From contig CAWJQC010000004.1 of NCBI GenBank assembly GCA_963844965.1, forward strand, positions 64,001 to 128,000: a stretch of 64,000 nt of DNA, read 5' to 3'. This document shows, in pieces, positions 4,001 through 61,686 of this stretch; the stretch's first letter is position 1; every line of letters starts with the position of its first letter. A model generated the notes under the pieces. It was not told where the DNA came from and searched no databases. It saw only the letters and a program-made list of their open reading frames with translations. This DNA is from an uncultured bacterium. Lineage in GTDB: Bacteria > Patescibacteriota > Minisyncoccia > UBA6257 > 2-01-FULL-56-20. The position numbers were made by a program, and so were the translations under genes.

Positions 4001-4519
4001 TCATTTCTTCTTTAGCGGCAATCCTAACTCCCTAAATTTCTCTATCGCCCATTGCCGATCTTTCTTGCGCGGAACGATGCTCACTCCCAACGAAAAAGAG
4101 AGTGGCGATTCTTCCGGCTTCACTTCAGGAAAAACAAATTGTTCTTTAAAGCCGACGTTCAGAACGCCTCCGCGATCAACCGCGCCAAGATCTACCCCCC
4201 TGAAATCTCGGACCCTTGGCCATACTATCTTAACCAAGCGCTCAAAAAAATCAACCATTTTTCCGCGCCTTAATGTAGCTTTCAAGCCGACGATCTGGCC
4301 TTCGCGCACCTTGAAGCCGGATATCGATTTTTTGGCGCGCCTTACCTGAGGCTTCTGGCCCGCAATGAGCGCGATGTCGCGCGATACCTGCGGCAGCCCC
4401 CTTTCCTCAAAGTTGGGGTTTTGAGCTGCGCGACCCACGCCGGCGTCAATGACGATCTTCTCTAAAAACTGTGTTACACGCCGACTGTTCTCGGATTGTT
4501 TTGGCTGTTCGTATTTCAT
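4001..4519 (-). CDS. rplE: 50S ribosomal protein L5 (start at MKYEQPKQSE)
   Basis: L5 motifs KIVIDAGVGRA ... VGFKEQFVFPE. The ORF-track upstream extension overlaps rplX and is unlikely to be real. Confidence 0.85.
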   Translation of the reverse strand: MKYEQPKQSENSRRVTQFLEKIVIDAGVGRAAQNPNFEERGLPQVSRDIALIAGQKPQVRRAKKSISGFKVREGQIVGLKATLRRGKMVDFFERLVKIVWPRVRDFRGVDLGAVDRGGVLNVGFKEQFVFPEVKPEESPLSFSLGVSIVPRKKDRQWAIEKFRELGLPLKKK

Positions 4520-4520
4520 T

Positions 4521-4826
4521 TTATGTTGTGGCATTACATTTCTTGCAATATCGGACTTTTCGCCCAGATTCAAAACGGTAACCAACGCGCGTCGCTTTCT
4601 TGCAACCTGAACATACCAGCATCACCTTGGATGCCGGCATCGGACGCGGAACCATGACCGTTTCGCCTTTCTGCCCCTGTCTCTTCGGACGCACGCGCTT
4701 CTTATAGAGATTTAGTCCTTCAACGGTAGCGCGTCCATCGTCTGGAAAAACATTCAAAACGGTGCCGCTTTTGCCGCGATCTTTGCCGGATAATATTTTA
4801 ACTTGGTCGCCTTTCTTTATGTGCAT
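4521..4826 (-). CDS. rplX: 50S ribosomal protein L24 (with Cys4 motif)
   Basis: 101 aa; KOW-type N-terminus GDQVKILSGKDRGKSGTV; C-terminus VCSGCKK...RYCKKC. Confidence 0.85.
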   Translation of the reverse strand: MHIKKGDQVKILSGKDRGKSGTVLNVFPDDGRATVEGLNLYKKRVRPKRQGQKGETVMVPRPMPASKVMLVCSGCKKATRVGYRFESGRKVRYCKKCNATT

Positions 4827-16537: not shown

Positions 16538-17740
16538 TTATTTCAGTATCTTAGTCACCGCTCCTGCGCCGACCGTCTTGCCGCCTTCGCGGATGGCAAA
16601 ACGCTGTTTTTCTTCAAGCGCGACCGGGAAATGAGTTTCACGGTGAGTTTAACGGTGTCGCCCGGCATGACCATTTCCATGCCTGCCGGCAAGGGTCACT
16701 TCGCCCGTAACATCGGTCGTCCTGATATAGAACTGCGGCTTGTAGCCGTTGAAGAACGGCGAGTGGCGGCCGCCTTCCTCTTTTGAAAGCACGTAAACCT
16801 CGCGCTCGAATTCCGTGTGCGGCGTGACGCTGCCCGGCTTCGCGACAACCTGCCCGCGCTCCACGTCTTCTTTCTTCAGGCCGCGGAGCAGAACGCCGAC
16901 GTTGTCGCCCGCCATGCCTTCGTCCAAGAGTCTTATTGAACATTTCAATGCCCGTGACGACGGTCTTCTGCCGTCGGCCTGCAGGCCGACGATCTCCACT
17001 TCTTCGTTCACTTTCACCTTGCCGCGCTCCACGCGGCCGGTCACGACCGTGCCGCGTCCTTCAATCGAGAAGATGTCTTCGATCGGCATAAGGAACGGCT
17101 TGTCGAAGTCGCGGACCGGATCGGGAATGAATGTCATCCACCGCTTTGATAAGGTCCAAGATCGGTTTCGCGTCCGGGTCGTCGGCGATTTCGCGGCCAA
17201 CGCTTTCAAAGCCGAACCGCGGATGATCGGAGTCGTGTCGCCCGGGAATTCGTATTTCTTCAAAAGCTCGCGGACTTCGGACTCAACGAGATCAATGAGT
17301 TCCGGATCGTCCACCTGATCGCACTTATTAAGAAACACGACGATGGTCGGCACGCCGACCTGGCGGGCAAGCAAAATGTGCTCGCGCGTCTGCGGCATCG
17401 GGCCGTCGGTCGCGGCGACGACCAAAATCGCGCCGTCCATCTGCGCGGCGCCCGTGATCATGTTCTTGATATAGTCGGCGTGTCCCGGCGCGTCAATGTG
17501 CGCGTAGTGGCGCTTCTCGGATTCGTACTCCGAATGGTGCAGGGCGATCGTGATGCCGCGCGCCTTTTCCTCCGGAGCGTTGTCAATTTGGTCCACTCTC
17601 TCTTCTTTCTTCGTCAGACCCTTCAAATGCAAAACGTGCATAATCGCGGCGGTCAGGGTCGTCTTGCCGTGGTCAACGTGGCCGATCGTGCCGATGTTCA
17701 TGTGCGGCTTGGCCCGGTAGAATTTTTCTTTTTCAGCCAT
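16538..17740 (-). CDS. tuf: Elongation factor Tu, carrying about four single-base frameshifts
   Basis: N-terminus [26 protein letters not shown] all intact. The stretch [23 protein letters not shown] reads in another frame as [23 protein letters not shown]. The C-terminus ...[23 protein letters not shown] / [29 protein letters not shown] is recovered in alternate frames. Confidence 0.85.
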
Positions 17741-19044: not shown

Positions 19045-21149
19045 TTACCGTTTTTTGCCTTCGATAATCAACTGCGCAATGTTCTGCGGCACTGGCTCAT
19101 AATGGTCAAATTCCATCGTGAACGCTCCCCTGCCTTGCGTCATGGAACGCAACTCGGTCGCGTAGCCGAACATTTCCGCGAGCGGAACTTTGGCGTCAAT
19201 CACTTTCACGTTGGGCCGGTCGGAAATTTCCTCAATCCTGCCGCGCTTGGAGTTCAAGTTGCCGCTCACCTCGCCCAAAAATTCTATCGGGATGATAACC
19301 TGAAGCTTCATTATCGGCTCCAATATGACCGGCTTCGCGCGCTTCGCCGCTTCCTGCAGGGCGATGGAGCCAGCAATTTTGAAAGCCGCCTCCGACGAGT
19401 CAACTTCATGGAAAGAGCCGTCATAGAGCGAAACTTCAAGGTCGGTCATCGGGTAGTGGGCAACGACCCCCTTACTCAATGCTTCCACCACACCTTTTTC
19501 CACCGCCGGGATGAATTCGTTCGGAATGATCCCTCCCTGATATCGTCTATGAAAACAAATCCCTTGCCGCGCTCCAAGGACTTCACGCGCAGCCAGACAT
19601 GTCCGTATTGTCCGCGGCCGCCGGATTGCCTGATATATTTGCCTTCCGCCTCCGCTTCGCCCATAATCGTTTCTTTATAGGCAACCTGCGGCCGCCCCAC
19701 CGAACCCTCAACACCGAACTCCCGCTTCATCCTGTCAACAATAATTTCCAGGTGCAACTCGCCCATGCCAGAAATAATCGTCTCGCCAGTTTCCAGGTCG
19801 CCCGCCACGCGGAAAGTCGGGTCTTCTTCCGCCAAGCGGTGCAGGGCAATGCTCATTTTTTCCTGGTCGGCTTTCGTCTTCGGCTCAATGCGAATGCCGA
19901 TCACCGGCTCGGGGAATATGATCTTCTCAAGCACTATCGGCGCGTCGGGACTGCAAAGCGTGTCGCCGGTCGTCGTATTCTTCAAACCGACGATCGCCGC
20001 GATATCTCCGGCATGCACTTCCTCCATTTCTTCGCGGTGGTTGGCGTGCATCCGCACCACGCGGCCGACACGTTCCTGCTGGTCCTTCTTGGAATTCAAA
20101 ACGTACGTGCCGCGCTTCAAAACGCCGGAATAATTCCGGAAATAGGTTAAAGTGCCGACGTACGGGTCTGTCGCAACCTTGAAAGCCAGCGCCGAGAACG
20201 GCTCTTCGTCCTTGGGGTGCCGCACGATATCGGCGCCGCTCTTCGGGTCAATGCCCTTAACCGGAGGAAGGTCCGTCGGCGCGGGCAAATATTCCACAAC
20301 CGAGTCAAGCATAAATTGCACGCCTTTGTTTTTCAGGGCCGAACCGCAAAGCACCGGCACAATTTTGTTGGCAATAACGGCTTTGCGCAAAACGCGGCGC
20401 AAATCTTCAATGTCAAGCTCAGTACCATCCAAATACTTGGTCATCAAGGCATCGTCATTGTCCACAATGCGTTCCACAAGTTCATGCCGCGCCTTCTTCA
20501 CGTGCACTTTCATATTTTCCGGCATCGGAATTTCTGTAATCTTTTCGCCATGTTCACCCTCCGAGCCGTACGCCTTTTCGGTTAAGAGGTCTATCATTCC
20601 CACGAATTCACCCTCAAGGCCGATGTTCAACTGCAAAGGCAGTGCGTTCGGCGTGAGCCGTTCTTTGATTGACTGCAAACTTTTTTCAAAGCTCGCACCC
20701 AAGCGGTCAAGTTTGTTAATAAAGCAAATCCGCGGCACGTGGTACTCATCGGCATAGCGCCAGTTCGTTTCCGACTGCGGCTCAACACCTGCGACGCCAT
20801 CAAAGACGACAACCGCGCCGTCCAAAACGCGGAGCGAACGCTTCACCTCCACCGTAAAGTCAATGTGCCCCGGCGTGTCAATCAAATTTATCATATGCTC
20901 AAATTTTTTGTCGCCCTTGCGGTAAGTCGGAATCCAGAACGCCGTCGTTGCGGCGGAAGTAATCGTAATTCCCCTCTCACGTTCCTGCTCCATCCAATCC
21001 ATCACCGTGTCGCCCGTGTGCACCTCGCCGATTTTGTGACTGACGCCCGTATAAAAAAGCACCCGTTCGCTCACGGTGGTTTTGCCGGCATCTATATGGG
21101 CGATGATGCCGATGTTACGGACCTTCTCGACAGGATACATTCTAGGCAT
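19045..21149 (-). CDS. fusA: Elongation factor G, split by a 1-nt deletion in a G-run near 19531-19540
   Basis: ORF-track pieces 19476..21149 (AHIDAGKTT...[10 protein letters not shown]) and 19045..19503 ([18 protein letters not shown]...) are contiguous EF-G. The correct join is ...[20 protein letters not shown]... Confidence 0.9.
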
Positions 21150-21303
21150 TGAATTTGAATAAACTTATTTTAATTCTCGCGCATATTGATGCGGGAAAGG
21201 GGTCGGGAAAACGGGAGTTTTCCCGTATAGGAAAAAGGCCGGAGGCCGAGTTAAAAACCGAGAGGTTTTTAAGGAGCGGGTTGCTGTATAGCGACTCGCG
21301 ACC

Positions 21304-21363
21304 GTCTATATGCGCGATTATTCCTATATTTCTTACTTTTTCTACTGGATATTGTCGCGGCAT
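21304..21363 (-). pseudogene. Displaced duplicate of the fusA 5' end (codons 1-20, [20 protein letters not shown]), codon-divergent from the functional copy
   Basis: ORF 21142..21363 begins with a 20-aa peptide identical (1 substitution) to the fusA N-terminus but with different synonymous codons. It then reads through a 150-bp hairpin-containing insert. Confidence 0.6.
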
Positions 21364-21371
21364 AAAATAAA

Positions 21372-21758
21372 TTATTTATCTTCTTCAACTTCCGGCAAAC
21401 CTGTTCCGCCTCTCACCCCTTGGCCGCCGCTCTCCACGTAAGACATGGTGACATCGAATGCGTTCCGGAGATAAGGAATTTTGGCGGGACTGCTGTTGCC
21501 TTCCTCTATCTCCGACCAGCTAATTTTGCCTTTTTCCAAAAGAGCGCTCAGAACTTCTATTTTTGATTTGGTGCCGAAATCCAAAACCGTTTCCGGTGGT
21601 GCATAAGCGATGTTTTTACCCTGCCGAAGCGCTTCCAATTCGTGGCGTTTCGCTCGTTCCTTATATTCTTCCAATTTTAATCGCAATTGCTTTACGCGCC
21701 GTCCGTCAGTAGGCAAAACTATCTCTAAACCACTTTTTTCGGCTTCCGGACCTTTCAT
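21372..21758 (-). CDS. Hypothetical protein (128 aa) between rpsG and fusA
   Basis: ORF only; charged and helical. Confidence 0.4.
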   Translation of the reverse strand: MKGPEAEKSGLEIVLPTDGRRVKQLRLKLEEYKERAKRHELEALRQGKNIAYAPPETVLDFGTKSKIEVLSALLEKGKISWSEIEEGNSSPAKIPYLRNAFDVTMSYVESGGQGVRGGTGLPEVEEDK

Positions 21759-21886
21759 CGTGGCAAATAATTACCGGGCGAAGTGCGCGAATGCCCTGTT
21801 CGCTTCCGCCCCCGCACCAAAGCTACGCTTGGTACGGGACTCCGCCTCTTCTAAATATCTTAAATTAAGGTGGCTACGCATTCTGT

Positions 21887-22354
21887 TTATCTGGCAAAGT
21901 GTGCAAAGGCACGATTAGCCTCAGCCATCCGGTGCATATCTAACTTCTTTTTGATTGCCGCGCCTTCATTCTTGGAAGCGGCAATGATTTCTTCCGCCAA
22001 TTTGTCGGCCATGGGCTTGCCTTTGCGGCTGCGCGCAGTGCCGATTATCCAGCGGATTGCCAAAATAAACCTGCGTTCGGGGCGCACTTCAATCGGCACT
22101 TGATAGTTCGCGCCGCCGACCCGCCGCGATTTCACCTCCAATAAAGGCGAGGCGTTTTCAACGGCTTTCTCAAAAACCTTCAGGGAATCTTCTTTCGTGA
22201 TTTCTTTCACTTTATCAAACGCGTCATAGACAATTTTTTCGGCAATTGATTTCTTGCCGTCGCGCATCACGTAATTAATAAAACGCTCCACGTCTATGCG
22301 CTCATGCTTTATGTCCGGCTTGTGATATTTTTTGTAAACTCGTTTTTTGCGCAT
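21887..22354 (-). CDS. rpsG: 30S ribosomal protein S7
   Basis: 155 aa; [22 protein letters not shown] ... [18 protein letters not shown]7. Confidence 0.9.
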
Positions 22355-22437
22355 TGTTACATATGGTTGTCATTCCGAGCTTTGCGAGGAATCTCATGAG
22401 ATCCTTCACTTCGCTCAGGATGATGCTCTGCGGAGCG

Positions 22438-23829: not shown

Positions 23830-23902
23830 GTCCCTGTAGCTCAACGGATAGAGCGTGTGGCTTCGAACCACAAGGTTGCAGGTTCAAATCCTGCCAGGGA
23901 CG
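23830..23902 (+). tRNA. tRNA-Arg (anticodon TCG)
   Basis: Hand-folded cloverleaf: acceptor GTCCCTG/CAGGGAC, D-arm GCTC-AACGGATA-GAGC, anticodon arm TGTGG-CTTCGAA-CCACA, T-arm GCAGG-TTCAAAT-CCTGC, discriminator G, no encoded CCA. It is flanked by the inverted repeat CCCACCTTTG / CAAAGGTGGG. Confidence 0.85.
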
Positions 23903-23924
23903 CAAAGGTGGGAGGGTGAAGATA

Positions 23925-23990
23925 TCATATGTGGCTTCGAACCACAGGTTCCAGGTTCGAGTCCTGGCGAGGGCACACACAACATTTCGT
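23925..23990 (+). other. Partial tRNA-Arg(TCG)-like fragment (anticodon arm plus T-arm, no 5' acceptor or D-arm)
   Basis: GTGGC-TTCGAAC-CACAG plus CCAGG-TTCGAGT-CCTGG plus CGAGGGCAC, with no complementary 5' acceptor strand upstream. Confidence 0.5.
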
Positions 23991-24072
23991 ATCGCGGCAT
24001 CGTGGGGGCCGACGCTCTAGCGCGACCCCGAGAGGCCTACCGATACGGAATATCGTCCTCCTTATTTCTCTA

Positions 24073-24324
24073 TTAAGAGCCGGCAAAAATACTTTTGATA
24101 AGGCTTGTAATGCCGCCTGCTATCAGCACGATCACAAAACCGACTGCCGCATACGTAAGGGTCTTCTTCCCTTTCGAAAATTTTTCAGGATCGCCAGCCG
24201 CCGTCATCATTTGAAACCCGCCGACAAGCACCATTATACTTGTGAGCGGCGCTGCAATATCGTAAAAAAGAAATCCCGCCACACTATTCGCGACGGACAC
24301 CAAGCTGCCCCCCCATTCGTACAA
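24073..24324 (-). CDS. Small two-TM membrane protein, TrbC/VirB2 pilin-like (tentative)
   Basis: 83 aa with two hydrophobic helices and a short charged loop; next to the serine recombinase. Confidence 0.3.
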   Translation of the reverse strand: MYEWGGSLVSVANSVAGFLFYDIAAPLTSIMVLVGGFQMMTAAGDPEKFSKGKKTLTYAAVGFVIVLIAGGITSLIKSIFAGS

Positions 24325-24491
24325 TTTGGATCGAACGGATTAAAAAGTTGGTTGGGAGGGCACGCGGCAAAAGCTAACTTCGCGACGGTTAAGGCGCTGA
24401 CTGTTATTAAAATCTTTGTTGTGCGGCGGATAATATGCATATGGATTATTATAGCATACGAGATAGCGTGGCAGAAGCCCATTTTGTTTAG

Positions 24492-25886
24492 CTATTTCTG
24501 CAAGCTCAGAATTTTATTCCTGAACGTCAACTTACTCTTGAAGCAAGATAGCAATTCGCGTTTCTCGACCGTGCTGCCCTTTTTGAGAAGATATTTTGCG
24601 TACGTTTTAAGGTCAATTTCTTTAGTGGCCGCTTTCGATCCTTCTCCCAAGACATCGTTCGCGAATTTGCGATATCGTTCCATCTCGTCTTCGAATTTCT
24701 TCTGCATCCCAATCTCACTGATATCCATCTCGTCAATGATAGCGAGAAGTTGAGCGATCAATTCCTCTTCGCGAATGTATCCGCACTTGCAATCCTTATC
24801 TTTCGAGCGTGAGCATCCATAGTACACGTACCGCGCCGTCGTTCCATCCTTGTGCGCCTTATATTTCTCGCACGCACTGATGCCCGATCCGCATAGGCCG
24901 CACGAGATCAGTTTCGTAAACGAAAATTCCTTTATCTCCGACCTGATGACAAAATCTCGGTGCAGCTGCTCCTGTACTTTATCGAACAGCTCCCGCGAAA
25001 TGATTGCTTCGTGCTTGCCGCTGTACCAGTTACCGCTCTTCAGTGGATACTCAAAGATGCCGCAGTAAAATGGATTTTTGAGGATGATATAAATATTGGA
25101 TAACGAAAGCACTTTCCCATTCTTTGTTCTGAATTTGATTTCCGACTTCAGCCAATGATAAAGCTTCCGGCCCGACCATTGTTCGTCGGCGACTTTCTGG
25201 AGCATTTGCTTGATGACGGGCGCTCGCAGGGGATCAATGATAACTTCACAAGGACGGTCGGTGCTCTTCTCGTTAAGATACCCTGTCGGTGCGATAGACG
25301 GACGCAAACCTTGTTCGCACCGCATCCGTAATCCGCGCTTCACGTTTTCCGATTTGTTATCATTCTCAAGTTTCGCTTGGCTGCACAAAATCATCAACAT
25401 GAATTTCTCGCTCGGCGAGTTCGTGAATTTCTGGCTGAAGGTTCTGATCTCGATAAGTAATTTTTGATCCATCAAGTCCACCAAGCCGCCAAGGTCGCCC
25501 GCGTTGCGGCTCAAGCGATCCGGCGCCCATGTAAGGATACCGTTGAATTCGCCGGAACGAATATCAATAAGCAACTCGTTAAAAATTTTTCGCTGGCCGA
25601 CAGCTTTTGCGGAATGGCTTTCCTTTCTAACTTCGGCGATCTCAAGGTTATCGCGCTCGGCGATTTTCAGCATCTCCTTTATCTGACTATCAATGGAAAG
25701 CACTTGCTGTTCCTCGCTCTCCGTACTTTTCCTCGCATAGAGGCAGTATTTTATTTTTATCGCTTCGGCCTTTGTCGCAGAAACGCCCGACTGATCCCAG
25801 CCCTTTGGTATATTTGTTATTTTCTCCATACCTAAGGGATGCCGCAACGGCGGAAGGAGTCCAGAGCATCCTTGTCGGTAACTCAA
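24492..25886 (-). mobile_element. Large serine recombinase (resolvase catalytic domain, recombinase domain, zinc ribbon)
   Basis: YCLYARKSTESEEQQVLSIDSQ catalytic-Ser motif, large-recombinase middle domain, C-terminal Cys cluster CGLCGSG...YGCSRSKDKDCKCGY. About 590 bp from tRNA-Arg. Confidence 0.8.
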
Positions 25887-31231: not shown

Positions 31232-33913
31232 ATGAGTGGGATAAAAATAAATCTTTCTCTCAGCGAAATCCCAGGCATCGGCCCGCGTTTTCTGGAACGG
31301 CTGGGAAAACTCGGCATAAAAACCGTCCGTGATCTCATTTATCATTTTCCGGCCCGCTACGAGGATTTCTCCCAGATATACAAAATTTCCGACGTTGAGC
31401 CGGGGGAACAGGTAACAATACGTGGCGTTGTTGAAGACACCAAACTGCGGCGGACTTGGAGAAAACACATGACAATCGCCGAAGCCCTGATCCGCGACGA
31501 TTCCGGAACGATACGCGCCATCTGGTTCAACCAACCATATGTTTTGAACACTCTGCGGGTCGGGCGCACGGCGAATTTCGCAGGCAAAATATCCATATCG
31601 GACGAGGACGAAATTTATTTGAGCCACCCGGCTTATGAAATCGTCGGCAGTCGGGAGTCGGGAACGGAGAAGCAAGAAACAAAACATACAGCGCGGCTCG
31701 TCCCCATTTATCCCGAAACGCGCGGCCTCACATCCAAGGGGTTGAGATATCTGATCCAGCCAATTCTGAAAAACAGCGAACAGCTGGAGGAATGGCTGCC
31801 GCCGGAAGTTCTGCGCGAAAATAATTTTCCCGAAATAAACCTTGCGCTCAGATCCATACACTTCCCCGAAAAAACCGAGGATGCTCTTGTCGCGAAAAAA
31901 CGCTTCACTTTTGAAAACCTGTTCCTGCTGCAACTCGCCAATCTTGAACAAAAATTGAAACTCGCGCGCGAAAAAGCGCCAGTGATCAAAACCGACATAG
32001 AACACCTGAAAAAAATGATCTCGGAACTGCCATACGAACTCACGTTTTCGCAAAAGAAATCATTGTGGGAAATCATCCAGGACCTCGCCAAAAAACAGCC
32101 GATGAACCGCCTGCTCCAGGGCGACGTGGGCTCCGGCAAGACGGTTGTCGCGGCGCTCGCCGCGGTAATTACCGCGGAAAACGGGCTGCAGACCGCGTTT
32201 ATGGCGCCAACCGAGGTTCTCGCGAGACAGCATTTTGAAACATTGAAAAAATTATTCGCCGGAATTCCCTCGATCCATCAACCCGTAGTTGGGCTTCTCA
32301 CGTCAAGCGAAGCAAAAATCCTCTACGCGACAGACCTTGAATCAAAAATCAAAAAACCGGAGTTGCAGGAAAAAATAAAAAACGGCGAGGTAAAAATAGC
32401 CATCGGCACGCACGCTTTGATACAAAAAGACGTGGCGTTCGGCAATCTTGCCTTTATCATCATTGACGAACAGCATAGATTCGGCGTCTCACAACGAGCT
32501 GCGCTCGTTCGCGGACAGACGCAGAATGATAATACGCGGACAGACGCTGAACAACTACTATACGAAAAAACGACGTTTGAGATAAGAAAAAGTCTGTTTG
32601 AGGTGAGAAAACAACTGGGCCTTGGTCATAAAGAAGTGGTGTATCAGAAAGCATTGGAGGAGGAGTTCAAGAAATCCGGTGTAATATTTGAGAAAGAAAA
32701 GAAAATTCCTGTCGTTTATAACAAGAAAAAGATTGGCGTTTATCAACCGGATTTTGTCATAGATAATGAAGTAATTTTGGAACTTAAGGCTCTTCCCTTT
32801 ATCGGCGGCATCGAAAAAAAACAGCTGTGGAATTATTTGAGGGGTTCGGATTACAAACTCGCGCTTATGGCAAACTTTGGACCGGAAAGATTATCCATAG
32901 AGCGGGTAGTATACGATATTGCGCGGAGTCGGCGGCTGTCAGCGTCCGGTCAGCAACTGTCCGCGCCTATCCCCCACCTCCTCTCAATGTCCGCCACGCC
33001 AATCCCACGCACGCTCATGCTCACCGTCTTCGGCGATTTGGATATATCGCTCATCACCGAACTTCCCGCCGGCAGAAAAAATATCGTAACAAAAATAATC
33101 CCCCCACGGGGCAGGAGCGAAGCCTATGAATTCATCCGCGGCGAAGTGAGGGCCAGCCGGCAGGTTTTTGTCATCTGCCCCCGCATTGACAAACCGCAGA
33201 CAGGCGCAGACCACACGCAGACAAACGCAGACAAGACACAGACAGACGCAGACAATTTTCAGCGGCTGTCTGCGTCAAGTCAGCGACTGTCCGCGTTAAG
33301 TCCACGTAAGTCCGCGTTAGTGTGGGAAGTAAGATCCGTGAAAGAAGAATTTGAAAAATTATCCAAGAAAATTTTTCCGGATTTGCGCGTCGCCATGCTC
33401 CACGGCCAGCTCAAGCCAAAAGAAAAAGCGGGTATCATGAAGGACTTCCGCAACTACAAAATAGATATTCTCGTTTCAACTTCCGTCGTGGAAGTTGGCG
33501 TGGACGTGCCGAACGCAACAATAATGATGATTGAAGGCGCCGATCGCTTCGGGCTGGCTCAGATCTACCAATTCCGCGGACGCGTGGGGCGCGGCGAACA
33601 CCAATCCTATTGCTTCCTGTTCACGGATTCGTCCGCCAAAACTACGCGCGAGCGGCTGCAGGCCGTCCTTGAAGCCAAGAACGGCTTTGAGCTCGCCGAG
33701 AAGGACCTGAAGATCCGCGGTCCCGGCGAATTCCTCGGCACGGCGCAGACCGGCTTTCCCGACACGGCGATGAGCGGCCTCATGAACCCGGAGCTCGTGA
33801 AAGCAAGCCGCGAAGCGGCGGCAAAAATCGTCCAAAAAGATCCGCTTTTCAAAAATTATCCGCTCCTGAAAACCAAATTAAACGAGTTCCGGAAGGAAAT
33901 CCACTTGGAGTAG
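31232..33913 (+). CDS. recG: ATP-dependent DNA helicase RecG carrying an inserted GxxExxY/PD-(D/E)XK nuclease-like domain (about 32500-32990) and a second short repeat-encoded insert (33180-33310)
   Basis: Wedge/OB N-terminus; helicase motifs GDVGSGKT, DEQHRFG, QxxGRxGR (YQFRGRVGRGEHQSY). Internal segment GHKEVVYQKALEEEF...YQPDFVIDNEVILELKA matches GxxExxY plus D-x(n)-ExK. Confidence 0.85.
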   Translation: MSGIKINLSLSEIPGIGPRFLERLGKLGIKTVRDLIYHFPARYEDFSQIYKISDVEPGEQVTIRGVVEDTKLRRTWRKHMTIAEALIRDDSGTIRAIWFNQPYVLNTLRVGRTANFAGKISISDEDEIYLSHPAYEIVGSRESGTEKQETKHTARLVPIYPETRGLTSKGLRYLIQPILKNSEQLEEWLPPEVLRENNFPEINLALRSIHFPEKTEDALVAKKRFTFENLFLLQLANLEQKLKLAREKAPVIKTDIEHLKKMISELPYELTFSQKKSLWEIIQDLAKKQPMNRLLQGDVGSGKTVVAALAAVITAENGLQTAFMAPTEVLARQHFETLKKLFAGIPSIHQPVVGLLTSSEAKILYATDLESKIKKPELQEKIKNGEVKIAIGTHALIQKDVAFGNLAFIIIDEQHRFGVSQRAALVRGQTQNDNTRTDAEQLLYEKTTFEIRKSLFEVRKQLGLGHKEVVYQKALEEEFKKSGVIFEKEKKIPVVYNKKKIGVYQPDFVIDNEVILELKALPFIGGIEKKQLWNYLRGSDYKLALMANFGPERLSIERVVYDIARSRRLSASGQQLSAPIPHLLSMSATPIPRTLMLTVFGDLDISLITELPAGRKNIVTKIIPPRGRSEAYEFIRGEVRASRQVFVICPRIDKPQTGADHTQTNADKTQTDADNFQRLSASSQRLSALSPRKSALVWEVRSVKEEFEKLSKKIFPDLRVAMLHGQLKPKEKAGIMKDFRNYKIDILVSTSVVEVGVDVPNATIMMIEGADRFGLAQIYQFRGRVGRGEHQSYCFLFTDSSAKTTRERLQAVLEAKNGFELAEKDLKIRGPGEFLGTAQTGFPDTAMSGLMNPELVKASREAAAKIVQKDPLFKNYPLLKTKLNEFRKEIHLE

Positions 33914-45806: not shown

Positions 45807-46187
45807 TTATAACACTTGGGCGCCTAATGCGCTTATTGCCTTATTTATCATCCACATGATTTCATCTAAATCTTCGGCCAATTTCCTGTATGTTTCGGGG
45901 TTCAAATATTTTAATTCATAGACAATCTCTAACTGAGTTTCCAGCTCTGCGCCGGAACTATATGCGTTTCTCAAAAATTGTAATTTTTCTTTTTTGGAAC
46001 TTCTCCGAAAACCCTCGGCAATATTAGACGGCATAGAAATCGCCGCTCGCCGCATTTGACTTGTTAGACCATATAGTTCCGACGGTGGAAATTTTTCGGT
46101 AACTCCGTATATCAGAACCGCATACGATTTTGTGCGTTTCCAAATGTTCAAATCTCTGTAAGATTTAATGGCTGAATTTTCCGCCAT
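45807..46187 (-). CDS. Four-helix-bundle protein (TIGR02436-like)
   Basis: 126 aa; ...YGLTSQMRRAAISMPSNIAEGFRRSSKKEKLQFLRNAYSSGAELETQLEI..., characteristic of that family. Confidence 0.6.
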   Translation of the reverse strand: MAENSAIKSYRDLNIWKRTKSYAVLIYGVTEKFPPSELYGLTSQMRRAAISMPSNIAEGFRRSSKKEKLQFLRNAYSSGAELETQLEIVYELKYLNPETYRKLAEDLDEIMWMINKAISALGAQVL

Positions 46188-46331
46188 GTCTAAATTCTAC
46201 TATATCATACTACCTACCACCTACTACATACTACTTACCGTGTCCGACCACCTCTCGCGTTTTCGGCGTTACCCAAAAGCGTCGCTCGCCTACGCTCGCT
46301 CCCTCACAACCTCTCGGTTTTGAGTAATTTC

Positions 46332-48005
46332 CTACACGGGAAAACTCCCGTTTTCCCGACCCCTTTCCCTGATTTTGGGCGTCACCCAAAATCCCAACCG
46401 CCATTTCCCTCCCAACATCAATCTGGTCTGCGCTTCAAGACCTGGCAACGCGCCAAAGATTATGAGCGTCAGCGGTATAAAAATCCACTGAAGAAAATAA
46501 ATGAGGTAGTGCCGCGCGCGGAACCAGCGCGGGCGCGGAGGCAAGAGCAGAATACCTAAAATCGCCGAACTTGCGATGCCTATCATGGAAAGCGAGACGA
46601 TGAAACGCGCGACTTGCGGCAGACTGTAAGAAAGGAGCGTGTAGTTGAAACGCCTGCCGCCGATGAACACCGGCAGCCACCCCAACGCGAAGATCATGAG
46701 GGAATTCGTCGCCCAAGAATGGAAACCTTCAAGGATATTGAAGGACCAATACCATTTTTTTCTTTTCGGAATTTCCGGGTCGCGCCGGAAGCCGTCCAGA
46801 AGATACGGAATATTTTCCGCGCCCCATCCCCAGCGCCGCTGTTGCCTGTAGATATTTTTCATCGTGGCCCAGAAAGTCGGCGCCGCGGGCGCGTCCATGG
46901 AAACCGGGTAAAGAAGGGGCTCAACGCGAAAATCGCCGTGATAGTGGAGATAGCACTGCCAAAAAATCCTTGAGTCCTCGGAGACAACGTCCTTATGCCA
47001 AAAACCGACGTCAATCAGCGTTTTCAGGGGAATTGACTGCGAAGAAAAAGAGGTCAGACGTTCCGGGCGCGACTGCTGCATCATCTGCCAGAAGGTTGAC
47101 GAAAAAGAAACGACGCGCGCCAAAGCCGGCGTCTCGTAAACGTTGTTCATGAAAAGCGGCACCGGCTGGTAAATCGCACGCTCGCGATCCTCCGAAGACA
47201 AAAAAACGTAGGCAAGCCGCCCGAAATATTCCGGGAAAACCTGCGTGTCAATGTCAAAAACCGACACTAAGATATTTTCATATCTTAACGCGGACTTACG
47301 CGGACTTAACGCGGAACTACGCGGAAAAACTTCTGCATTAGTCTGCACTTGCCCGCCTAAATTTCCTTCGGAAACTTTGGCGGGTAAATCTGCGTTAGTC
47401 TGCGCATTGACCAATGGGTCAATTATTAATTCTTTGGCGTGTGCCGCCGCCCACGCCTCATTGGAACCTTTGCCGGGAATTTCACCGGCTAAATTCCGCG
47501 GATGGACAGTGACAAGAAACCTGAAAAATTTATCGGCGAATTCTTTTTTTATTTTTTCGGCGACCGCTCTGGCGTCTTCCCCACCCGCTTCCTCCGTCGC
47601 CAGCACGACCAAAAGCTTATCCAGCGGATAATTCACGCGAACCAAGCTCTCAAAACTTCCGCGAACCACTTCATAGGGCTCTTTGTACATCGGAAGAATA
47701 ATAAGGTGATACACTTCCGACCATGACAATGACTTATGACGATGACCGCTCAAATTATTGTTATCGTTATTGTCATTTGTCATAGTCCGCAATTTTTCCA
47801 GCCAATCCACTCTCAGGTTTTTCCTCATCGCCGAAAAAGTTGAGCGCAAGTGCAGAGAGAGATAAATCGTTTTCAGGAGCCAGTAGATGTCAAAGAGTAT
47901 GATAAAAACCGCGACGGCGGCGGGCAGCTTCCACGACAGAAAGACCATCAAAAATAAAGTGAGCCAGGCAAGACCTCCGGGAAGAATTTCAAAAAAACGG
48001 TGCAT
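46332..48005 (-). CDS. Membrane glycosyltransferase family 2 (processive-type, QxxRW motif) with an in-frame repeat-element insert at about 47270-47420
   Basis: N-terminal TMs; LVVLATEEAGGED, FDIDTQ (DxD-like), QQRRWGWG, C-terminal TMs. The insert encodes QTNADLPAKVSEGNLGGQVQTNAEVFPRSSALSPRKSAL. Confidence 0.65.
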   Translation of the reverse strand: MHRFFEILPGGLAWLTLFLMVFLSWKLPAAVAVFIILFDIYWLLKTIYLSLHLRSTFSAMRKNLRVDWLEKLRTMTNDNNDNNNLSGHRHKSLSWSEVYHLIILPMYKEPYEVVRGSFESLVRVNYPLDKLLVVLATEEAGGEDARAVAEKIKKEFADKFFRFLVTVHPRNLAGEIPGKGSNEAWAAAHAKELIIDPLVNAQTNADLPAKVSEGNLGGQVQTNAEVFPRSSALSPRKSALRYENILVSVFDIDTQVFPEYFGRLAYVFLSSEDRERAIYQPVPLFMNNVYETPALARVVSFSSTFWQMMQQSRPERLTSFSSQSIPLKTLIDVGFWHKDVVSEDSRIFWQCYLHYHGDFRVEPLLYPVSMDAPAAPTFWATMKNIYRQQRRWGWGAENIPYLLDGFRRDPEIPKRKKWYWSFNILEGFHSWATNSLMIFALGWLPVFIGGRRFNYTLLSYSLPQVARFIVSLSMIGIASSAILGILLLPPRPRWFRARHYLIYFLQWIFIPLTLIIFGALPGLEAQTRLMLGGKWRLGFWVTPKIRERGRENGSFPV

Positions 48006-54306: not shown

Positions 54307-57104
54307 ATGCCCGAAGAATTTCCTACGCGCTACGACATAAAGGAAGTTGAAACGAAAATCTACGACCTATGGGAAAAGTCTGGGTTTTTCAATCCCGATG
54401 TTTGCGTTGAAAAAGGCGCGACGAAACCGGACGCCGAACCTTTTTCCATCGTCCTGCCGCCGCCGAACGTAACCGGCACCTTGCACATCGGCCACGCCTT
54501 TGAGGACGCGATCCAAGACACCGTTGTCCGCTACGAGCGCATGCGCGGCAAGCGGACGCTCTGGGTTCCCGGGACCGACCACGCCGCCATCGCCACGCAG
54601 GCGAAAGTGGAGGAACTTCTGCGCAAGGAAGGGAAAACGAAATACGACCTCGGCCGGGAGGAATTCCTGCGGCGCGTGAACGAGTTCGCCAAAAATTCTC
54701 ATGACATCATAATCCGCCAGATAAAACGGCTCGGCGCTTCGCTTGATTGGGGCCGCGAGGCATATACGCTTGATGAAAAACGAAATCTCGCCGTCCGCAC
54801 CGCCTTTAAAAAAATGTACGACCTCGGCCTCATTTACCGCGGCGATCGTATCGTGAACTGGGACCCGAAGCTACAGACCACCGTCTCCGACGACGAGGTG
54901 GAATGGATAGACGAAACGACGCCTTTCTACTATCTGAAATATGGGCCGTTCGTCATCGGCACGGCAAGACCGGAAACGAAGTTTGGCGACAAATACGTCG
55001 TCATGCATCCGGACGACGAACGCTATAAAAAATATAAACACGGCGAAAAGATAGAACTTGAATGGATAAACGGGTCGGTCACGGCAACAATTATCAAGGA
55101 TAAGGTCATTGACGTGAATTTCGGCACGGGCGTGATGACAATCACACCATGGCACGACATGACGGACTTTGACATCGCGGAAAGGCATCGCCTGGATAGG
55201 GAGCAGATAATCGACCTGCGCGGCAAACTGCTGCCCATCGCCGGCGAATTCGCCGGAACGCCTATCGCCAAGGCCCGGCCGCTCATTATTGAAAAACTAA
55301 GAACAAAGGGTCTCGTGGAAAAGATTGACGAACATTACGCCCATCGCGTCGCCACGAACAGCCGCGGCGGCGGCCTCATCGAACCGCAGATCCTCAAACA
55401 ATGGTTCGTCAAGGTAAACTCCAAGTTCCAAATCCCAATTTCCAACCTAAAAGGGATAAAAAGCGGCCAAGAGGTGACGCTCAAGGAACTTATGAAAAAA
55501 GTCGTGGAGTCGGGGCAAATAAAAATCATACCCGGACAGTTTGAAAAAATTTACTATCATTGGATAGACAACCTGCGCGACTGGTGCATCTCGCGCCAGC
55601 TTTGGTTCGGGCACAGAATTCCGGTGTGGTATTGCCTCGCCTGCGGCGAGCCGCAAGTTGAACCGAAAATAAAATCGCGATGGTTCCTGGTGCGGCACGG
55701 AGAAACAGACTGGATCAAAGAGGGGCGGCACATGGGACATAAAGAGGTTCCCATGAATGAAACCGGCAAGCAGCAAGCGATGGTAGCCGGCGAACGGCTC
55801 GCAAACGAAAAAATTGATCTGATAATTTCTTCCACCACCATGCGCTGCAAAGAAACCGCCGAAATTATCGCGAAAAAACTGGGTGTCAAAATTATTTTTG
55901 ACGAACGTCTGCGCGAGCGCGGCAGTGGCGAATGGGAAGGACTGCTGCATGCGGAAATCAGGGAAAAATACAAACCTCTGGAGCAAAAATATGGACCGAG
56001 GAGTGGAACAAGCGCGCGCGCTATGAATTCAAACCGCCGGGAGGAGAAAATTGGCTGGAACTTGAAAAGCGCGTAATTCAATCGTTCAAAGAGCACAAAC
56101 TTCGATACGCCGACAAAAATATCGCGATTGTCACCCACGCCGGTCCGATCAGGATCCTGGAAAAAAATCTTAAAAACAAATCATTTGAAGAAGTGGTGGG
56201 ATTAATACCCGAGAATGCCGAGATTGCTAAGCTTTCAATCGCAACTGCTTCCTGTAAAAAATGTGGCAGTGATACTTACGAGCAGGATCCCGATACTCTG
56301 GATACCTGGTTCTCCTCCGCTATGTGGACGTTCTCAACTCTCGGCTGGCCTGAAAAAACCTCCGACCTCAGAACCTACCATCCAACCTCTTTGATGGCGC
56401 CGGGGTATGAAATCCTTTTCTTCTGGGTGGCGCGGATGATACTCATGAGCGGCTGTCTTTTGGGAGAAATCCCCTTCCGCACGGTTTATCTCCACGGCAT
56501 TGTGCGCGACAAGCAGGGCAAGAAATTCAGCAAATCCAGCGGTCACGCGCTTGACCCCCTGGAACTAGCCGACAAATACGGAGCGGACGCCCTGCGCATG
56601 GCTTTAATTGCCGGAGCGGCGCCGGGAAACGACGTGCAATTTGACGAGAATAGGGTCAAGGGCTACAGGAATTTTTCAACCAAGATATGGAACGTAGCGC
56701 GGTTTGTTTTACTAAACAAACCGCCGCAGACAGACGCTGACAAGACGCGGACAGCCGCGGACATTGCTGGCCGACCAGAGATAAAGGAGTTTGAGGCAAT
56801 TAAATCGGAAATAACGAAACATCTTGATGAATACGAACTGCATCTCGCAAGCGAAAAGATTTACCACTACTTCTGGCACACTTTCGCCGACAAAATAATT
56901 GAACAGGAAAAAGCCAACCTGCGGACAGCCGCCGACAAGACGCAGACAGACGCAGACATTGCGAGACGGGCAGAATCCTATGCCCTACTGGGATACATTC
57001 TCGTCGGTTCGCTTAAACTACTCCACCCTTTCATGCCGTTCGTAACAGAAGAGATTTATCAAAAATTTGAACTAAATAAGCTTCTCTTGACCGAAAAATG
57101 GTAA
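54307..57104 (+). CDS. valS: Valyl-tRNA synthetase with an inserted histidine-phosphatase (PGAM-like) domain; 1-nt deletion in an A6 run near 55987-55993 splits it into two ORF-track pieces
   Basis: PPPNVTGTLHIGHA (HIGH), GKKFSKSSGH (KMSKS), VLDTWFSS. Between WYCLACGE and CKKCGSD lies a ~190-aa block: FLVRHGETDW...SSTTMRCKETA...GSGEWEG...AIVTHAGPIRIL, the RHG histidine-phosphatase signature. Frame repair CAAAAATATGG to CAAAAAATATGG restores ...KPLEQKIWTEEW... Confidence 0.85.
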
Positions 57105-60014: not shown

Positions 60015-60085
60015 CGGCGGTCAAAAACGGAGTATCGTATAATGGTAGTGCCTGCCGGCAGGCAGGCACATGCATGGCCCAGCAC

Positions 60086-60154
60086 TAAAATTTTCGGGCT
60101 GTAGTATAGCGGCAGTACGCACCCTTGGGGTGGGTGTAGACCGGGTTCGACTCC
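60086..60154 (+). tRNA. tRNA-Pro (anticodon GGG)
   Basis: Acceptor GGGCTGT/GCAGCCC, anticodon arm CACCC-TTGGGGT-GGGTG, T-arm CCGGG-TTCGACT-CCCGG (one nucleotide short, possibly an indel), discriminator G. Its last two nucleotides overlap the start of a 159-bp inverted repeat. Confidence 0.7.
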
Positions 60155-60311
60155 CGGCAGCCCGACATAACGGAACTTGCATCAACTTTTTCAAAATCAA
60201 CGCGCTCGCTTCGCTCGCTGTCTTTATGCACGAGGGGCAAATGGAGAAGCAAATCCGTAACTACTTTCCATTCGTCTTTCCAATCCCAAAAAATTTCCCT
60301 GTCCCGCAGGC

Positions 60312-61686
60312 GGCGGTTCGTTCCGATTTTCCCCGCAAAGGATTTTATGGCGTCGAATTCTTCGGACGAAGCCAGTTTTGCCGCGTGAAACGCGGATATA
60401 ATCCATTCCCGCAATGGTTCGATCCAATAGTTTCCCCTCCGCCCGCAATCATCATTCTGCTTGGACAAGGAAACTTTAGTTTTGATAAGCTCGTCCTTTT
60501 TGGCAAGATAGATTTCTTTTTCAATTGAGCCGTCCAAAAAGGCGTTCACGAGCTTGTCTAATTTCTGCTCGGTTTCCTTGAGTTGGGTTTCGAGATTGCG
60601 GGCGGAATTCTCCGAAGATTGGATGCCTTCTTTTTCCCACGCTTCCACTTGAACCAGCATTTTCTCTTTCCAATCTTCGGGGATGGCGACCTCCGAGATT
60701 TTCTCTTTGAGCTGTTGCACGAGTAAATCTTCGCGCAGATAGCTTTGTGAACACGGGCCAAGCCGTTTCGTACAGCGATAATACTTGTAGAGGCCGCCGT
60801 TCCCTTTCGCGTATTGGGCGGTGATGGCCGCGCCGCACTCGCCGCAGGTGAGCAATCCGGTGAACGGGAAATAATGACGCTTCTTGGAGTGGCGCGGCTT
60901 GGCTTTGTTCCTCAAAACCTCCTGCACTTTCTTGAAGGTCGCCTCGGGAACTATCGGCAGGAAATTGCCGACATAGCTCTCGCCGTTGTGTTTTATCACT
61001 CCGAGATAGGCGGAGTTCGTGAGCATCCGTTGGAGCGTGGCCTTCGGCATGGGATTTCCCGTACCGCTCACGATGCCGAAAAACTGGAAGCGGGCGGCGA
61101 GCGTCTTTAGGGTGTGCCTCCCTTCGGCGTATTCCTCAAAAACTTTTCTGATGATTCTCGCCCGCACGGGGTCGGGTTCGATGTTCCGCGTCTTGGGATT
61201 GTTGAGGTAACCGAAGGGGGCTTTGGTCGGCCACTCGCCGCGCCGCAATTTCTGCCGGATGCCGCGCTTCACGTTCTCGGAAAGGTTATCGCTGTAATAC
61301 TTGGACTGGCCGAAGGCGACCTGCAACATGAAAAGTCCCTGCGGGGTCGGCTCAAACCAGAACGTCGGGAACTTCAGCGAGGCAATCTTCTGGGTATCGA
61401 TGAGGTAGATGATTTGGCCGCCGTCTATGGAGTTGCGAGCCAATCGGTCGGGATGCCACGCCAATATGCCGACGGGTTCTTTGCTCTCGTGAATTTTCTT
61501 GATAAGGTCGCCGAACACTTCCCTGCCCGGACTTTTCGCGCTCTTGCTCTCGATGAAGGTCTCGATAATCTTTATATGTTCCCGTTTAGCGAACTCGGCA
61601 AGCTCCGCGAGTTGGGCTTCAATGCTCATCACCTGCCGTTCCTCGTCCTCGGTGGACTTGCGGGCATAGAGGAAATATGGGGTCAT
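60312..61686 (-). CDS. Large serine recombinase (body; the C-terminus continues into the left IR, and the annotated tail beyond 60153 is read-through antisense to tRNA-Pro)
   Basis: YARKSTEDEERQVMSIEAQ catalytic motif, recombinase domain, zinc ribbon CGECGAAITAQY...YYRCTKR, coiled-coil C-terminus. Confidence 0.8.

Follow-up and report, generated by a model that had tools for sequence, protein, structure and literature searches.

Target-regenerating genomic islands insert near the end of a conserved gene and carry a replacement for the part concerned (PMC4383910, PMC7192596, PMC4482086). A much smaller arrangement of this kind is found in a 64-kb stretch of DNA from an uncultured member of the Patescibacteria (contig CAWJQC010000004.1; hereafter the window), in which the start of the fusA gene is present twice, on either side of a hairpin-rich spacer. 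On balance, and with some reserve, we read positions 21090-21303 of the window as one copy of a Patescibacteria family of very small, non-coding, site-specific insertion elements that carry a spare gene end. In every clearly resolved instance the order is gene body, complete gene end, a linker of 0-60 nt, a segment complementary to the flanking host sequence (T'), a structured core, and the displaced original gene end. The analysis covered the window and comparisons with metagenome, genome and viral contigs; compared sequences are cited by labels such as L001.

Islands of the Islander/TIGER type and those at the 5' end of dusA resemble the element in leaving a regenerated target and a displaced fragment, in the dominance of tRNA and tmRNA genes among their targets, and in including both 5'-end and 3'-end cases. 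Unlike these integrase-driven islands, the element has no integrase, and its unit of about 200 nt has no open reading frame (ORF) other than read-through from the displaced fragment. It also differs in having a covarying multi-hairpin core and an internal target-complementary segment, and in using one scaffold at many unrelated targets. With regard to an att-type identity block, the window copies are 70% identical with short exact runs only, while copies elsewhere agree at 38-40/40 positions (L084, L085, L092, L095); the two copies perhaps need not share such a block. We class the element with the target-regenerating integrative elements; there is a substantial chance that its targeting module itself is new. 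It differs from miniature inverted-repeat transposable elements (MITEs) in that its inverted repeat is formed by T' and the host flank and not between its termini, and in that its duplications are long and variable (~27-160 nt).

Elements that set their target by nucleic-acid pairing are also known. IS200/IS605 elements and the palindrome-associated transposable elements (PATE) are small units with hairpins that move as single strands, and guide bases beside the hairpin pair with the target, so that specificity can be reset. The pairing in the present element is longer (8-22 nt, against 4-5 nt there) and the target duplication is long. Furthermore, its left flanks vary by target with no fixed tetra- or pentanucleotide, and its copies lie on opposite strands. 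Neither a Y1 transposase TnpA nor a TnpB was found in the 64-kb window. In IS110/IS1111 elements, a bridge RNA or seekRNA sets the target by pairing, together with a DEDD recombinase; the guides are split between two loops and only a core dinucleotide is duplicated. Targeting by this structured RNA is programmable and has high site specificity. The present element instead has a single contiguous T', replaces a gene end, and has no recombinase gene in or beside it.

The duplicated fusA start and its native copy

The working start of fusA comprises 20 codons continuous with the ORF of elongation factor G (EF-G), which is identified by the Pfam domains GTP_EFTU, EFG_III, EFG_IV and EFG_C; its best matches are Paceibacterota and Liptonbacteria metagenome-assembled genomes (78% amino-acid identity), which places the organism in the Patescibacteria. 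A first-pass annotation of this DNA had claimed a second copy of the fusA 5' end, and both the coordinates (21149-21090 and 21363-21304) and the content of the two copies agree with that claim. The two starts share 19/20 residues and 42/60 bases; five codons are identical, 14 carry synonymous changes and one a non-synonymous change. The fragment was recovered by tblastn with the EF-G of a relative (E = 7e-8), which found no other piece of fusA in the 64 kb, and a repeat finder returned the pair as a 64-nt direct repeat (D1, 70% identity). The 154-nt spacer between the copies (21303-21150) contains the two hairpins described in the first pass, CGGGAAAAC/GTTTTCCCG (9 bp) and GGCC-nnn-GGCC, and a third, AAAAACC/GGTTTTT. 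Folded as RNA, the spacer reaches -62.7 kcal/mol (z = -3.9 against shuffles). The same region also holds a duplicate of the rpsG end, inverted fusA codons, an ORF that stays open through the insert, and a frameshift in fusA, all of which are additional to the first-pass annotation.

A short-read contig from a separate assembly (L003; Logan ERR10755942) gives the same sequence from rpsL into the hairpins; it takes in the duplicated rpsG end, ORF128 and the displaced start of fusA and reaches 107 nt into the insert. The duplication is therefore not an assembly artefact.

The native copy can be recognised from ORF128, an orphan gene of 128 aa with a conserved C-terminus (GGTGLPEVE) and no Pfam or PHROG match, which is native to the rpsG-fusA spacer of the lineage. 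Only two homologues were found, lying between rpsG and fusA or upstream of fusA. The closer one (80% identity) is in L001, where the order is rpsG, 3 nt, ORF131, 8 nt, fusA, with no duplicates. By blastn, window positions 21810-21305 align with L001 positions 1114-1619 as one colinear block (81.4%), in which ORF128, the fragments of rpsG and fusA, and the two short spacers are all contained; the flanks align at 77.8% (rpsL-rpsG) and 75.9% (fusA). In a by-eye base count, the displaced fusA start is 83% identical to that of L001 and the replacement start 73%. Because of this colinearity, the fragments adjoining ORF128 are the native gene ends, and the copies fused to the gene bodies, with their inserts, are additions (Table 1). 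The first-pass annotation had considered a conserved, translated leader ORF in relatives as the finding that would speak against integration. L001 keeps the tight rpsG-ORF131-fusA spacing with no fusA peptide upstream, which excludes such a leader, and among 83 loci compared (80 of them from the genome collection) a fusA fragment occurs only where a hairpin insert is present.

At the other side of ORF128, the two rpsG ends agree in 12/12 residues and 27/39 bases. The 77-nt insert between them has no match to the core model described below and is similar to hairpins of the form GCCCCGTAG...GGGG in L029, L036 and L037; judged from its sequence, it belongs to a different or degenerate hairpin family. 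The rpsG and fusA duplications thus nest as A[B..B]A around ORF128. Two other histories were considered and rejected. An island of rpsG 3' end, ORF128 and fusA 5' end inserted into a genome that had no such ORF is contradicted by the colinearity with L001, spacers included, and by the separate hairpin insert beside each fragment. Replacement of the whole fusA gene is contradicted by the lack of any 5'-truncated fusA elsewhere in the window and of a 3' remnant after the window fusA.

Table 1. Features of the fusA locus and of the second site, in window coordinates.
Feature	Position	Strand	Remarks
rpsL	22848-22438	-	gene order: rpsL, rpsG, 77-nt insert, rpsG duplicate, ORF128, fusA fragment, 154 nt with hairpins, fusA
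rpsG	22354-21887	-	
Replacement rpsG 3' end	21887..21925	-	fused to rpsG body
Insert after rpsG stop	21810..21886 (77 nt)	-	ends in hairpin CCCGTACCAA-GCGTAGCT-TTGGTGCGGG abutting displaced rpsG end
Displaced original rpsG 3' end	21771..21809	-	last 12 codons and stop, then same TAATTATTTGCCAC spacer as L001
ORF128	21372..21758	-	orphan; outside element; marks original context
Displaced original fusA codons 1-20	21304..21363	-	contiguous with ORF128 exactly as in L001
73-codon ORF	21142..21363	-	starts in displaced fragment, reads through antisense core; TAG overlaps fusA ATGCCTAG
Inserted unit	21090-21303 (214 nt)	antisense to fusA	includes 60 nt now serving as fusA start
Structured core	21193..21303 (111 nt)	+	three-hairpin; covariance model (CM) score 93.6 bits; nhmmer E = 4e-18; begins GGGAAAGGGGTC; 3' end reads ...GCGACC
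P-a	21204-21225	+	GGGA loop; followed by GTATAGGAAA
GGCC hairpin	21237-21247	+	
P-b	21251-21272	+	GAGA loop
P-c	21273-21303	+	variable
T'	21171..21192	+	reverse-complementary to right flank; + strand reads LILAHIDAGK (inverted fusA codons)
AT-rich linker	21150..21170	+	from fusA ATG to T'; serves as 5' leader of fusA
Replacement fusA codons 1-20	21090..21149	-	left terminus of inserted unit (ATCTATATGGGCG); continuous with EF-G ORF
fusA (EF-G), target gene	19045..21149	-	split into two ORFs by 1-nt deletion near 19530
Target copy 1 at site 2	46370..46391	-	TTTTGGGTGACGCCCAAAATCA, FWVTPKI; palindromic, hence doubles as T'
Second core	46279..46369	-	sense orientation, 3' end of GT2-family glycosyltransferase gene; CM score 90.3 bits
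Displaced original GT2 3' end	46231..46278	-	FWVTPKTREVVGHGK*

A second copy of the core lies in the same window. BLAST of the 154-nt spacer gave a 42-nt match of 97.6% at 46328-46369, at the 3' end of a gene for a GT2-family glycosyltransferase. This gene reads ...GFWVTPKIRE and then continues into the core, where 10 further codons (RGRENGSFPV*) lead to a stop; the displaced original end is encoded by TTTTGGGTAACG..., which follows some 90 nt of element. A by-eye count gives 7 base differences in 27 nt between the two copies, of which 6 are synonymous. The palindromic target here is TTTTGGGTGACGCCCAAAA, and the tail of the GT2 gene has been altered rather than restored. At both window sites, the 3' end of the core abuts the displaced fragment and the gene body is on the opposite side.

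A gene for an Avd-like four-helix bundle (23S-rRNA-intervening-sequence protein; 45807-46187, minus strand) lies directly downstream of the second core, and no Avd-like gene was found near the core at the other loci. A diversity-generating retroelement was accordingly considered as a candidate and rejected, given that the differences between copies are not adenine-specific, no reverse transcriptase was found, and the Avd-like gene is not associated with the core elsewhere.

A common core with variable targets

Alignment of the two window sites defines a common core consisting of GGGAAAGGGGTC, the hairpin P-a (GGGA loop), GTRTAGGAAA, an optional hairpin, the hairpin P-b (GAGA loop) and a variable P-c. 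A degenerate 33-nt pattern of the core, searched as an exact match, occurs in 46 metagenome contigs and in no viral contig, and an nhmmer profile returned 52 core copies. The covariance model added a copy at the rpsJ 3' end of L032 (a Paceibacterota genome), a divergent relative behind a tRNA gene of a Liptonbacteria genome (L005), and a partial motif right after the fusA stop of L001. The search of other contigs suggested in the first-pass annotation thus finds the core in at least 46 further contigs. Its central proposal, that an element integrated into the fusA 5' end and supplied its own replacement, gains support from this recurring core between complete and displaced gene ends. The first pass had left two options for the short insert; that of a small non-autonomous element stands, whereas that of a deletion remnant does not, since complete members of the family normally measure about 200 nt.

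The secondary structure of the core is supported by covariation in the two modelled helices among 29 distinct cores. Paired cells make up 97.6% of the total (87.0% in shuffles) and cells with compensatory double changes number 60 (17.7 in shuffles), while controls with slid partners are only 28-59% paired; 8/17 pairs are compensatory. The loops are always GNRA, on the canonical strand only, and the strands joining the helices are conserved (GGGAARGGGGUC and GURUAGGAA). Counts of G.T and A.C wobbles for the folded strand (3 vs 2) are uninformative, and the canonical strand is favoured by the GNRA loops and a recurrent A.G pair alone. Within the core, variability is greatest in P-c, which lies immediately to the left of the junction. 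In Rfam 15, no family came near its gathering threshold, the best being sroE (14 bits, cutoff 51) and RAGATH-25 (11 bits, cutoff 49).

The elements measure ~140-230 nt and contain no genes. The left target copy begins, in most instances, at 75-160 nt upstream of the core. No left copy or no clear T' was found for a minority of instances, among them L088/L109, L093, L107 and L126/L127. More than 10 kinds of target were found. RNA genes identified by ARAGORN include those for tRNA-Gln, Leu, Ser, Gly and Ile and for tmRNA, and tRNA and tmRNA genes are the commonest targets. Protein-coding targets identified by Pfam are fusA (L092), lepA (L095, L121, L123), rplK (L084), rpsJ (L032), ftsZ (C-terminal DIPTFLRRKKK; L106), alaS (L102) and an IMS/dinB-type polymerase gene (L115). 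The cut sites fall in some of the most strongly conserved stretches of a genome, such as the T-arm of tRNAs, the G1 motif AHID of fusA and lepA, and the PAGxANP motif of L11; the landing point in the window fusA is between codons 20 and 21, at this AHID/G1 motif. Judged from these sequence matches, the family is widespread in Patescibacteria.

Searches for a partner gene or an earlier description gave little. Nothing similar to the element was found in phage and plasmid collections. When all ORFs with a length of 120 aa or more in the 46 contigs were clustered, no family recurred beside the cores except the target translational GTPases, and a Pfam survey of the window found no transposase, TnpB, IS110, reverse transcriptase or tyrosine integrase. 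No published description was found in the full-text literature searched (subscription journals lay outside this search), and the element goes unmentioned in a survey from 2026 of tRNA introns in Patescibacteria. Larger units do exist: two cores flank an APH-like kinase gene (L116 1-2678), a core with a displaced tRNA end closes a phage-like block with a ParB-methylase and a helix-turn-helix protein (L105 625-3400), and a core abuts a 5'-truncated large serine recombinase in L099 (7100-9700), where a second core follows tRNA-Asp. A large serine recombinase homologue stands beside a core only in L088 and L097/L099 (one sequence, the L099 copy being 5'-truncated).

The second recurring feature of the family is the complementarity of T' to the flank. 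In the window, 21171-21192 pairs with 21304-21325 at -20.5 kcal/mol and ends 0 nt before the core; the repeat finder lists part of it as the inverted repeat I2 (21172-21189/21305-21322, 83% complementary), and T' is identical at 21/22 nt to the antisense of the L011 fusA. The best duplex stops 0-3 nt ahead of the core (GGRAAR) in all but one of 41 distinct instances. The pairing partner of T' is host sequence, in most instances directly after P-c, and in most of the 41 it starts ~20-30 nt past the modelled core. The helix measures 22 bp in L105 and 19 bp in both L095 and L106, and L129 has one of 16 bp with no mismatch. The mean duplex energy of T' with its own flank is -18.2 kcal/mol, against -12.6 kcal/mol with the flanks of other elements. 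The cores themselves do not follow the target: those of L121 (lepA) and L104 (tRNA-Gln) differ at 5/113 nt, and a by-eye comparison finds the P-c variant of the window in both lepA-directed and tRNA-directed copies. As cores that are ~95% identical occur with unrelated T' and targets, T' behaves like a specificity module that can be exchanged while the scaffold stays constant.

The two gene-end copies also carry a record of their history. Copy differences are 14 synonymous and 1 non-synonymous in the window fusA, 7 and 0 in ftsZ (L106), and 20 and 10 in alaS (L102). A remnant decaying in place would gather mostly non-synonymous changes; thus the copies appear to have evolved as working ends in different lineages. 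In L123, the replacement lepA start (MENTKNIRNF..., MENTKNIRNFVIIAHID) and the displaced one (MNEKTAENIRNF..., MNEKTAENIRNFVIIAHID) differ in both length and sequence, and these heterologous starts indicate that the two copies can stem from different lineages. We infer that either the unit moves between lineages with the gene end of its donor, or alleles are exchanged with the core as a homology anchor. Conserved cores would in that case be portable homology patches, which may promote the exchange of core-gene alleles between lineages.

The replacement of gene ends by miniature hairpin elements appears to be general in Patescibacteria genomes. It would explain puzzling duplicated gene ends in this group, which confuse gene callers and may pass for pseudogenes or assembly errors. 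It would also mean that essential genes of tiny genomes (fusA, lepA, ftsZ, rplK, rpsJ, alaS, tRNAs and tmRNA) are routinely invaded by an element of ~200 nt with no loss of function.

Proposed mechanism and rival explanations

A constant scaffold combined with many target-complementary segments is a hallmark of programmable systems. It is possible, and we propose it tentatively, that the element is a nucleic-acid-guided programmable integration module, in which a folded single strand of ~100 nt would find its site in practically any conserved gene through 8-22 nt of complementarity and would direct precise strand joining at that point, either as a (deoxy)ribozyme or via a host enzyme, while duplication or carriage of the gene end would keep the host alive. 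From complementarity alone we infer the guide function of T'. In the proposed scheme, a folded single strand (DNA or RNA) would bind the target through T', as the guide that selects the site. A strand would then be cleaved exactly 5' of the target sequence to which T' is paired; the cut strand would be joined to the 3' end of the core, and the gap would be filled by copying or carrying the gene end. The gene body would thereby join the element-side copy while the original end is pushed aside, and the gene would stay intact. Cutting and joining could be performed by a factor encoded elsewhere (in trans) or by the folded core itself, and the synonymous divergence of the fusA copies would reflect transfer or recombination between lineages, not decay in place. 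The scheme was drawn up in this form because the right junction is precise, the duplicated length is variable, and T' is able to pair with either target copy. If the guide function is real, the element would amount to a natural and very compact means of site-specific insertion; if it is a guided module as a whole, no smaller site-specific mobile element would be known, and it would rank as a natural insertion system that can be retargeted.

Several points weigh against guided insertion. By-eye counts for the window T' give only 15/18 matching positions with its flank and 13/18 with the working fusA copy, and the targets in the tRNA T-arm and at site 2 are palindromic, so the T'-target signal there is partly trivial. 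No enzyme was identified, and neither an excision product nor a pair of empty and occupied alleles was seen. Terminator hairpins occur in many linkers at tRNA sites, unlike what a co-transcribed RNA intermediate would require, and the two window copies lie on opposite strands, which does not suit a strictly lagging-strand mechanism with single-stranded DNA. The scheme also leaves unexplained how the right gene end is acquired when the target changes. Moreover, cores stand at the ends of larger blocks (L116, L105, L099), and the small elements could be island derivatives mobilised in trans.

This last point leads to an alternative to which we attach a low but appreciable probability, namely that the elements are minimal, integrase-less derivatives of integrative elements (similar to cis-mobilisable elements, CIMEs), moved by a protein integrase encoded elsewhere, such as one of the large serine recombinases that are common in these genomes. 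This integrase would recognise the attachment site, with the core as an arm or accessory site and T' as the second half of a dyad-symmetric site. The outcome is exactly that of known islands, with a regenerated target and a displaced fragment (PMC4383910, PMC7192596). tRNA and tmRNA genes are the commonest targets, larger versions with cargo or phage-like genes exist, and the window contains two large serine recombinases, the ORF of one overlapping tRNA-Pro. Serine integrases require little sequence identity between their sites, which would fit the recoded copies. However, ~100 nt of conserved structure stand between T' and its partner, whereas the halves of a protein-bound core site are adjacent, and P-c, beside the junction, is the most variable part of the core, so that a protein half-site there would be unconserved. 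Cores that are ~95% identical at unrelated targets would further need one integrase that accepts many sites, and among the element-bearing contigs a recombinase homologue was found only in L088 and L097/L099.

The remaining explanations are far less probable. One is that ordinary horizontal transfer replaced the gene ends by homology-facilitated illegitimate recombination, in which one junction is homologous and the other illegitimate, the hairpins being intergenic terminators of the donor. This would suit the synonymous-only divergence expected of alleles from two lineages and the fusA breakpoints that vary between genomes (12, 14, 20 and 32 codons). It is nevertheless very unlikely: in dozens of unrelated genes and contigs, the junction is occupied by the same covarying core, with a right boundary that is precise and a T' that matches. 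Junctions formed by chance would have no core in common, and intergenic sequence is otherwise unconserved between lineages. We consider it equally hard to credit that the upstream copy of the fusA start serves as a regulatory leader ORF, with the hairpins as an attenuator of fusA. The 73-codon ORF is open through the insert and its end overlaps the fusA start, L123 is similar, and the region folds well as RNA; but the fragment is absent from L001, and the same core stands after tRNAs and at gene 3' ends, where a leader function is impossible. By inspection, the antisense core is stop-free in all three frames through its composition, and no terminator-like site was found. As for an artefact of joining two strain variants during assembly, the assembly does seem to hold indel errors (the fusA frameshift, a split aminoacyl-tRNA synthetase gene and a truncated tuf domain), yet the Logan short-read contig reproduces the locus and the same architecture occurs in dozens of unrelated assemblies, which leaves this explanation with next to no probability.

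Guided insertion by a small spare-end element may also be set beside three further kinds of system. Group I introns are frequent in the tRNAs of Patescibacteria (PMC13011429). Like the element, introns of groups I and II occupy very conserved sites in tRNAs and essential genes, use an internal guide to pair with the exon at the junction, and spread between lineages. The element differs in that its core is too small, with no Rfam intron match at E <= 10, and in that it is antisense at all 5'-end sites, where it cannot splice; it keeps the gene by means of the spare end. In organelles, insertions of endonuclease ORFs (e.g., in Allomyces atp6) supply a foreign in-frame C-terminus and leave the old end downstream, with divergence rich in synonymous changes. 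Unlike the element, they carry a homing endonuclease gene, occur at 3' ends only, and have no structured core or guide-like segment. Folded single-strand sites, such as attC of integrons and attP of CTX-phi, are defined by secondary structure and belong to short gene-free or single-gene units that can form arrays. The element differs from these in that it has no GTTRRRY-type junction, its right-junction bases vary by target, it shows no association with IntI or Xer, and its target is inside genes.

Expression, assembly errors and neighbouring features

Where the element stands before fusA, no sigma-70-like promoter or terminator was found in the linker 21150-21170, and fusA expression probably relies on operon read-through. 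As the reading frames suggest, the 73-codon ORF may be translationally coupled to fusA; L123 has the same arrangement of a read-through ORF. The 1-nt deletion that splits fusA lies in a G run, relative to L001, and is most likely an assembly indel. It is read in this way because two other genes also look disrupted: the tuf ORF (16649-17740) is short and its match to domain 3 is confined to positions 1-48 of the 106 in the profile, and the class I aminoacyl-tRNA synthetase gene (54307-57104) is split between two overlapping ORFs. The three together suggest homopolymer indel errors in the assembly rather than pseudogenes. Exact-protein look-ups for the fusA frameshift and the glycosyltransferase gene returned no record in other assemblies.

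A second hairpin family was observed at fusA ends in other contigs. It consists of ~25 nt of AT-rich sequence followed by CCACTTCYC-GCCCCGTAG...GGTACYGGGG. In L029 (6120-6370), L037 (6130-6420) and L036 (6150-6300), where it forms tandem arrays, it separates the fusA stop from one or two recoded copies of the last 14 codons; it also occurs in L024 (3917-4000). In L029, 10/10 codon differences between the copies of the fusA end are synonymous. L031 has this family at both ends of fusA in inverted orientation (2237-2345 and 4490-4600). In addition, fusA 5' fragments of 32 codons in L002 (251-432) and 12 codons in L004 (3899-4000) are followed by GC-rich hairpins, GCCTTCGGC...GGCCTTCGGC and CCTGCCTGCCGGCAGGCAGG, and a similar CCTGCC hairpin with a partial GGGAAGGGGGTCGG motif stands after the fusA stop in L001 (3680-3733).

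The two large serine recombinases of the window are at 60085-61686, overlapping tRNA-Pro (60095-60166) on the opposite strand, and at 24492-25886, ~0.6 kb from tRNA-Arg, with a gene for a type IV secretion system pilin-like protein (24073-24324) between. Both regions (23830-25886 and 60085-61686) are probably small integrated elements. A 28-nt imperfect palindrome (repeat I1) fills the rpsL-rpsG spacer at 22370-22423. Elsewhere in the window, two proteins have additional domains: a PD-(D/E)XK_3 nuclease domain lies between the two helicase lobes of RecG (31232-33913, plus strand), and a His_Phos_1 domain is inserted at profile position 260 of the catalytic domain of the class I aminoacyl-tRNA synthetase (54307-57104, plus strand).

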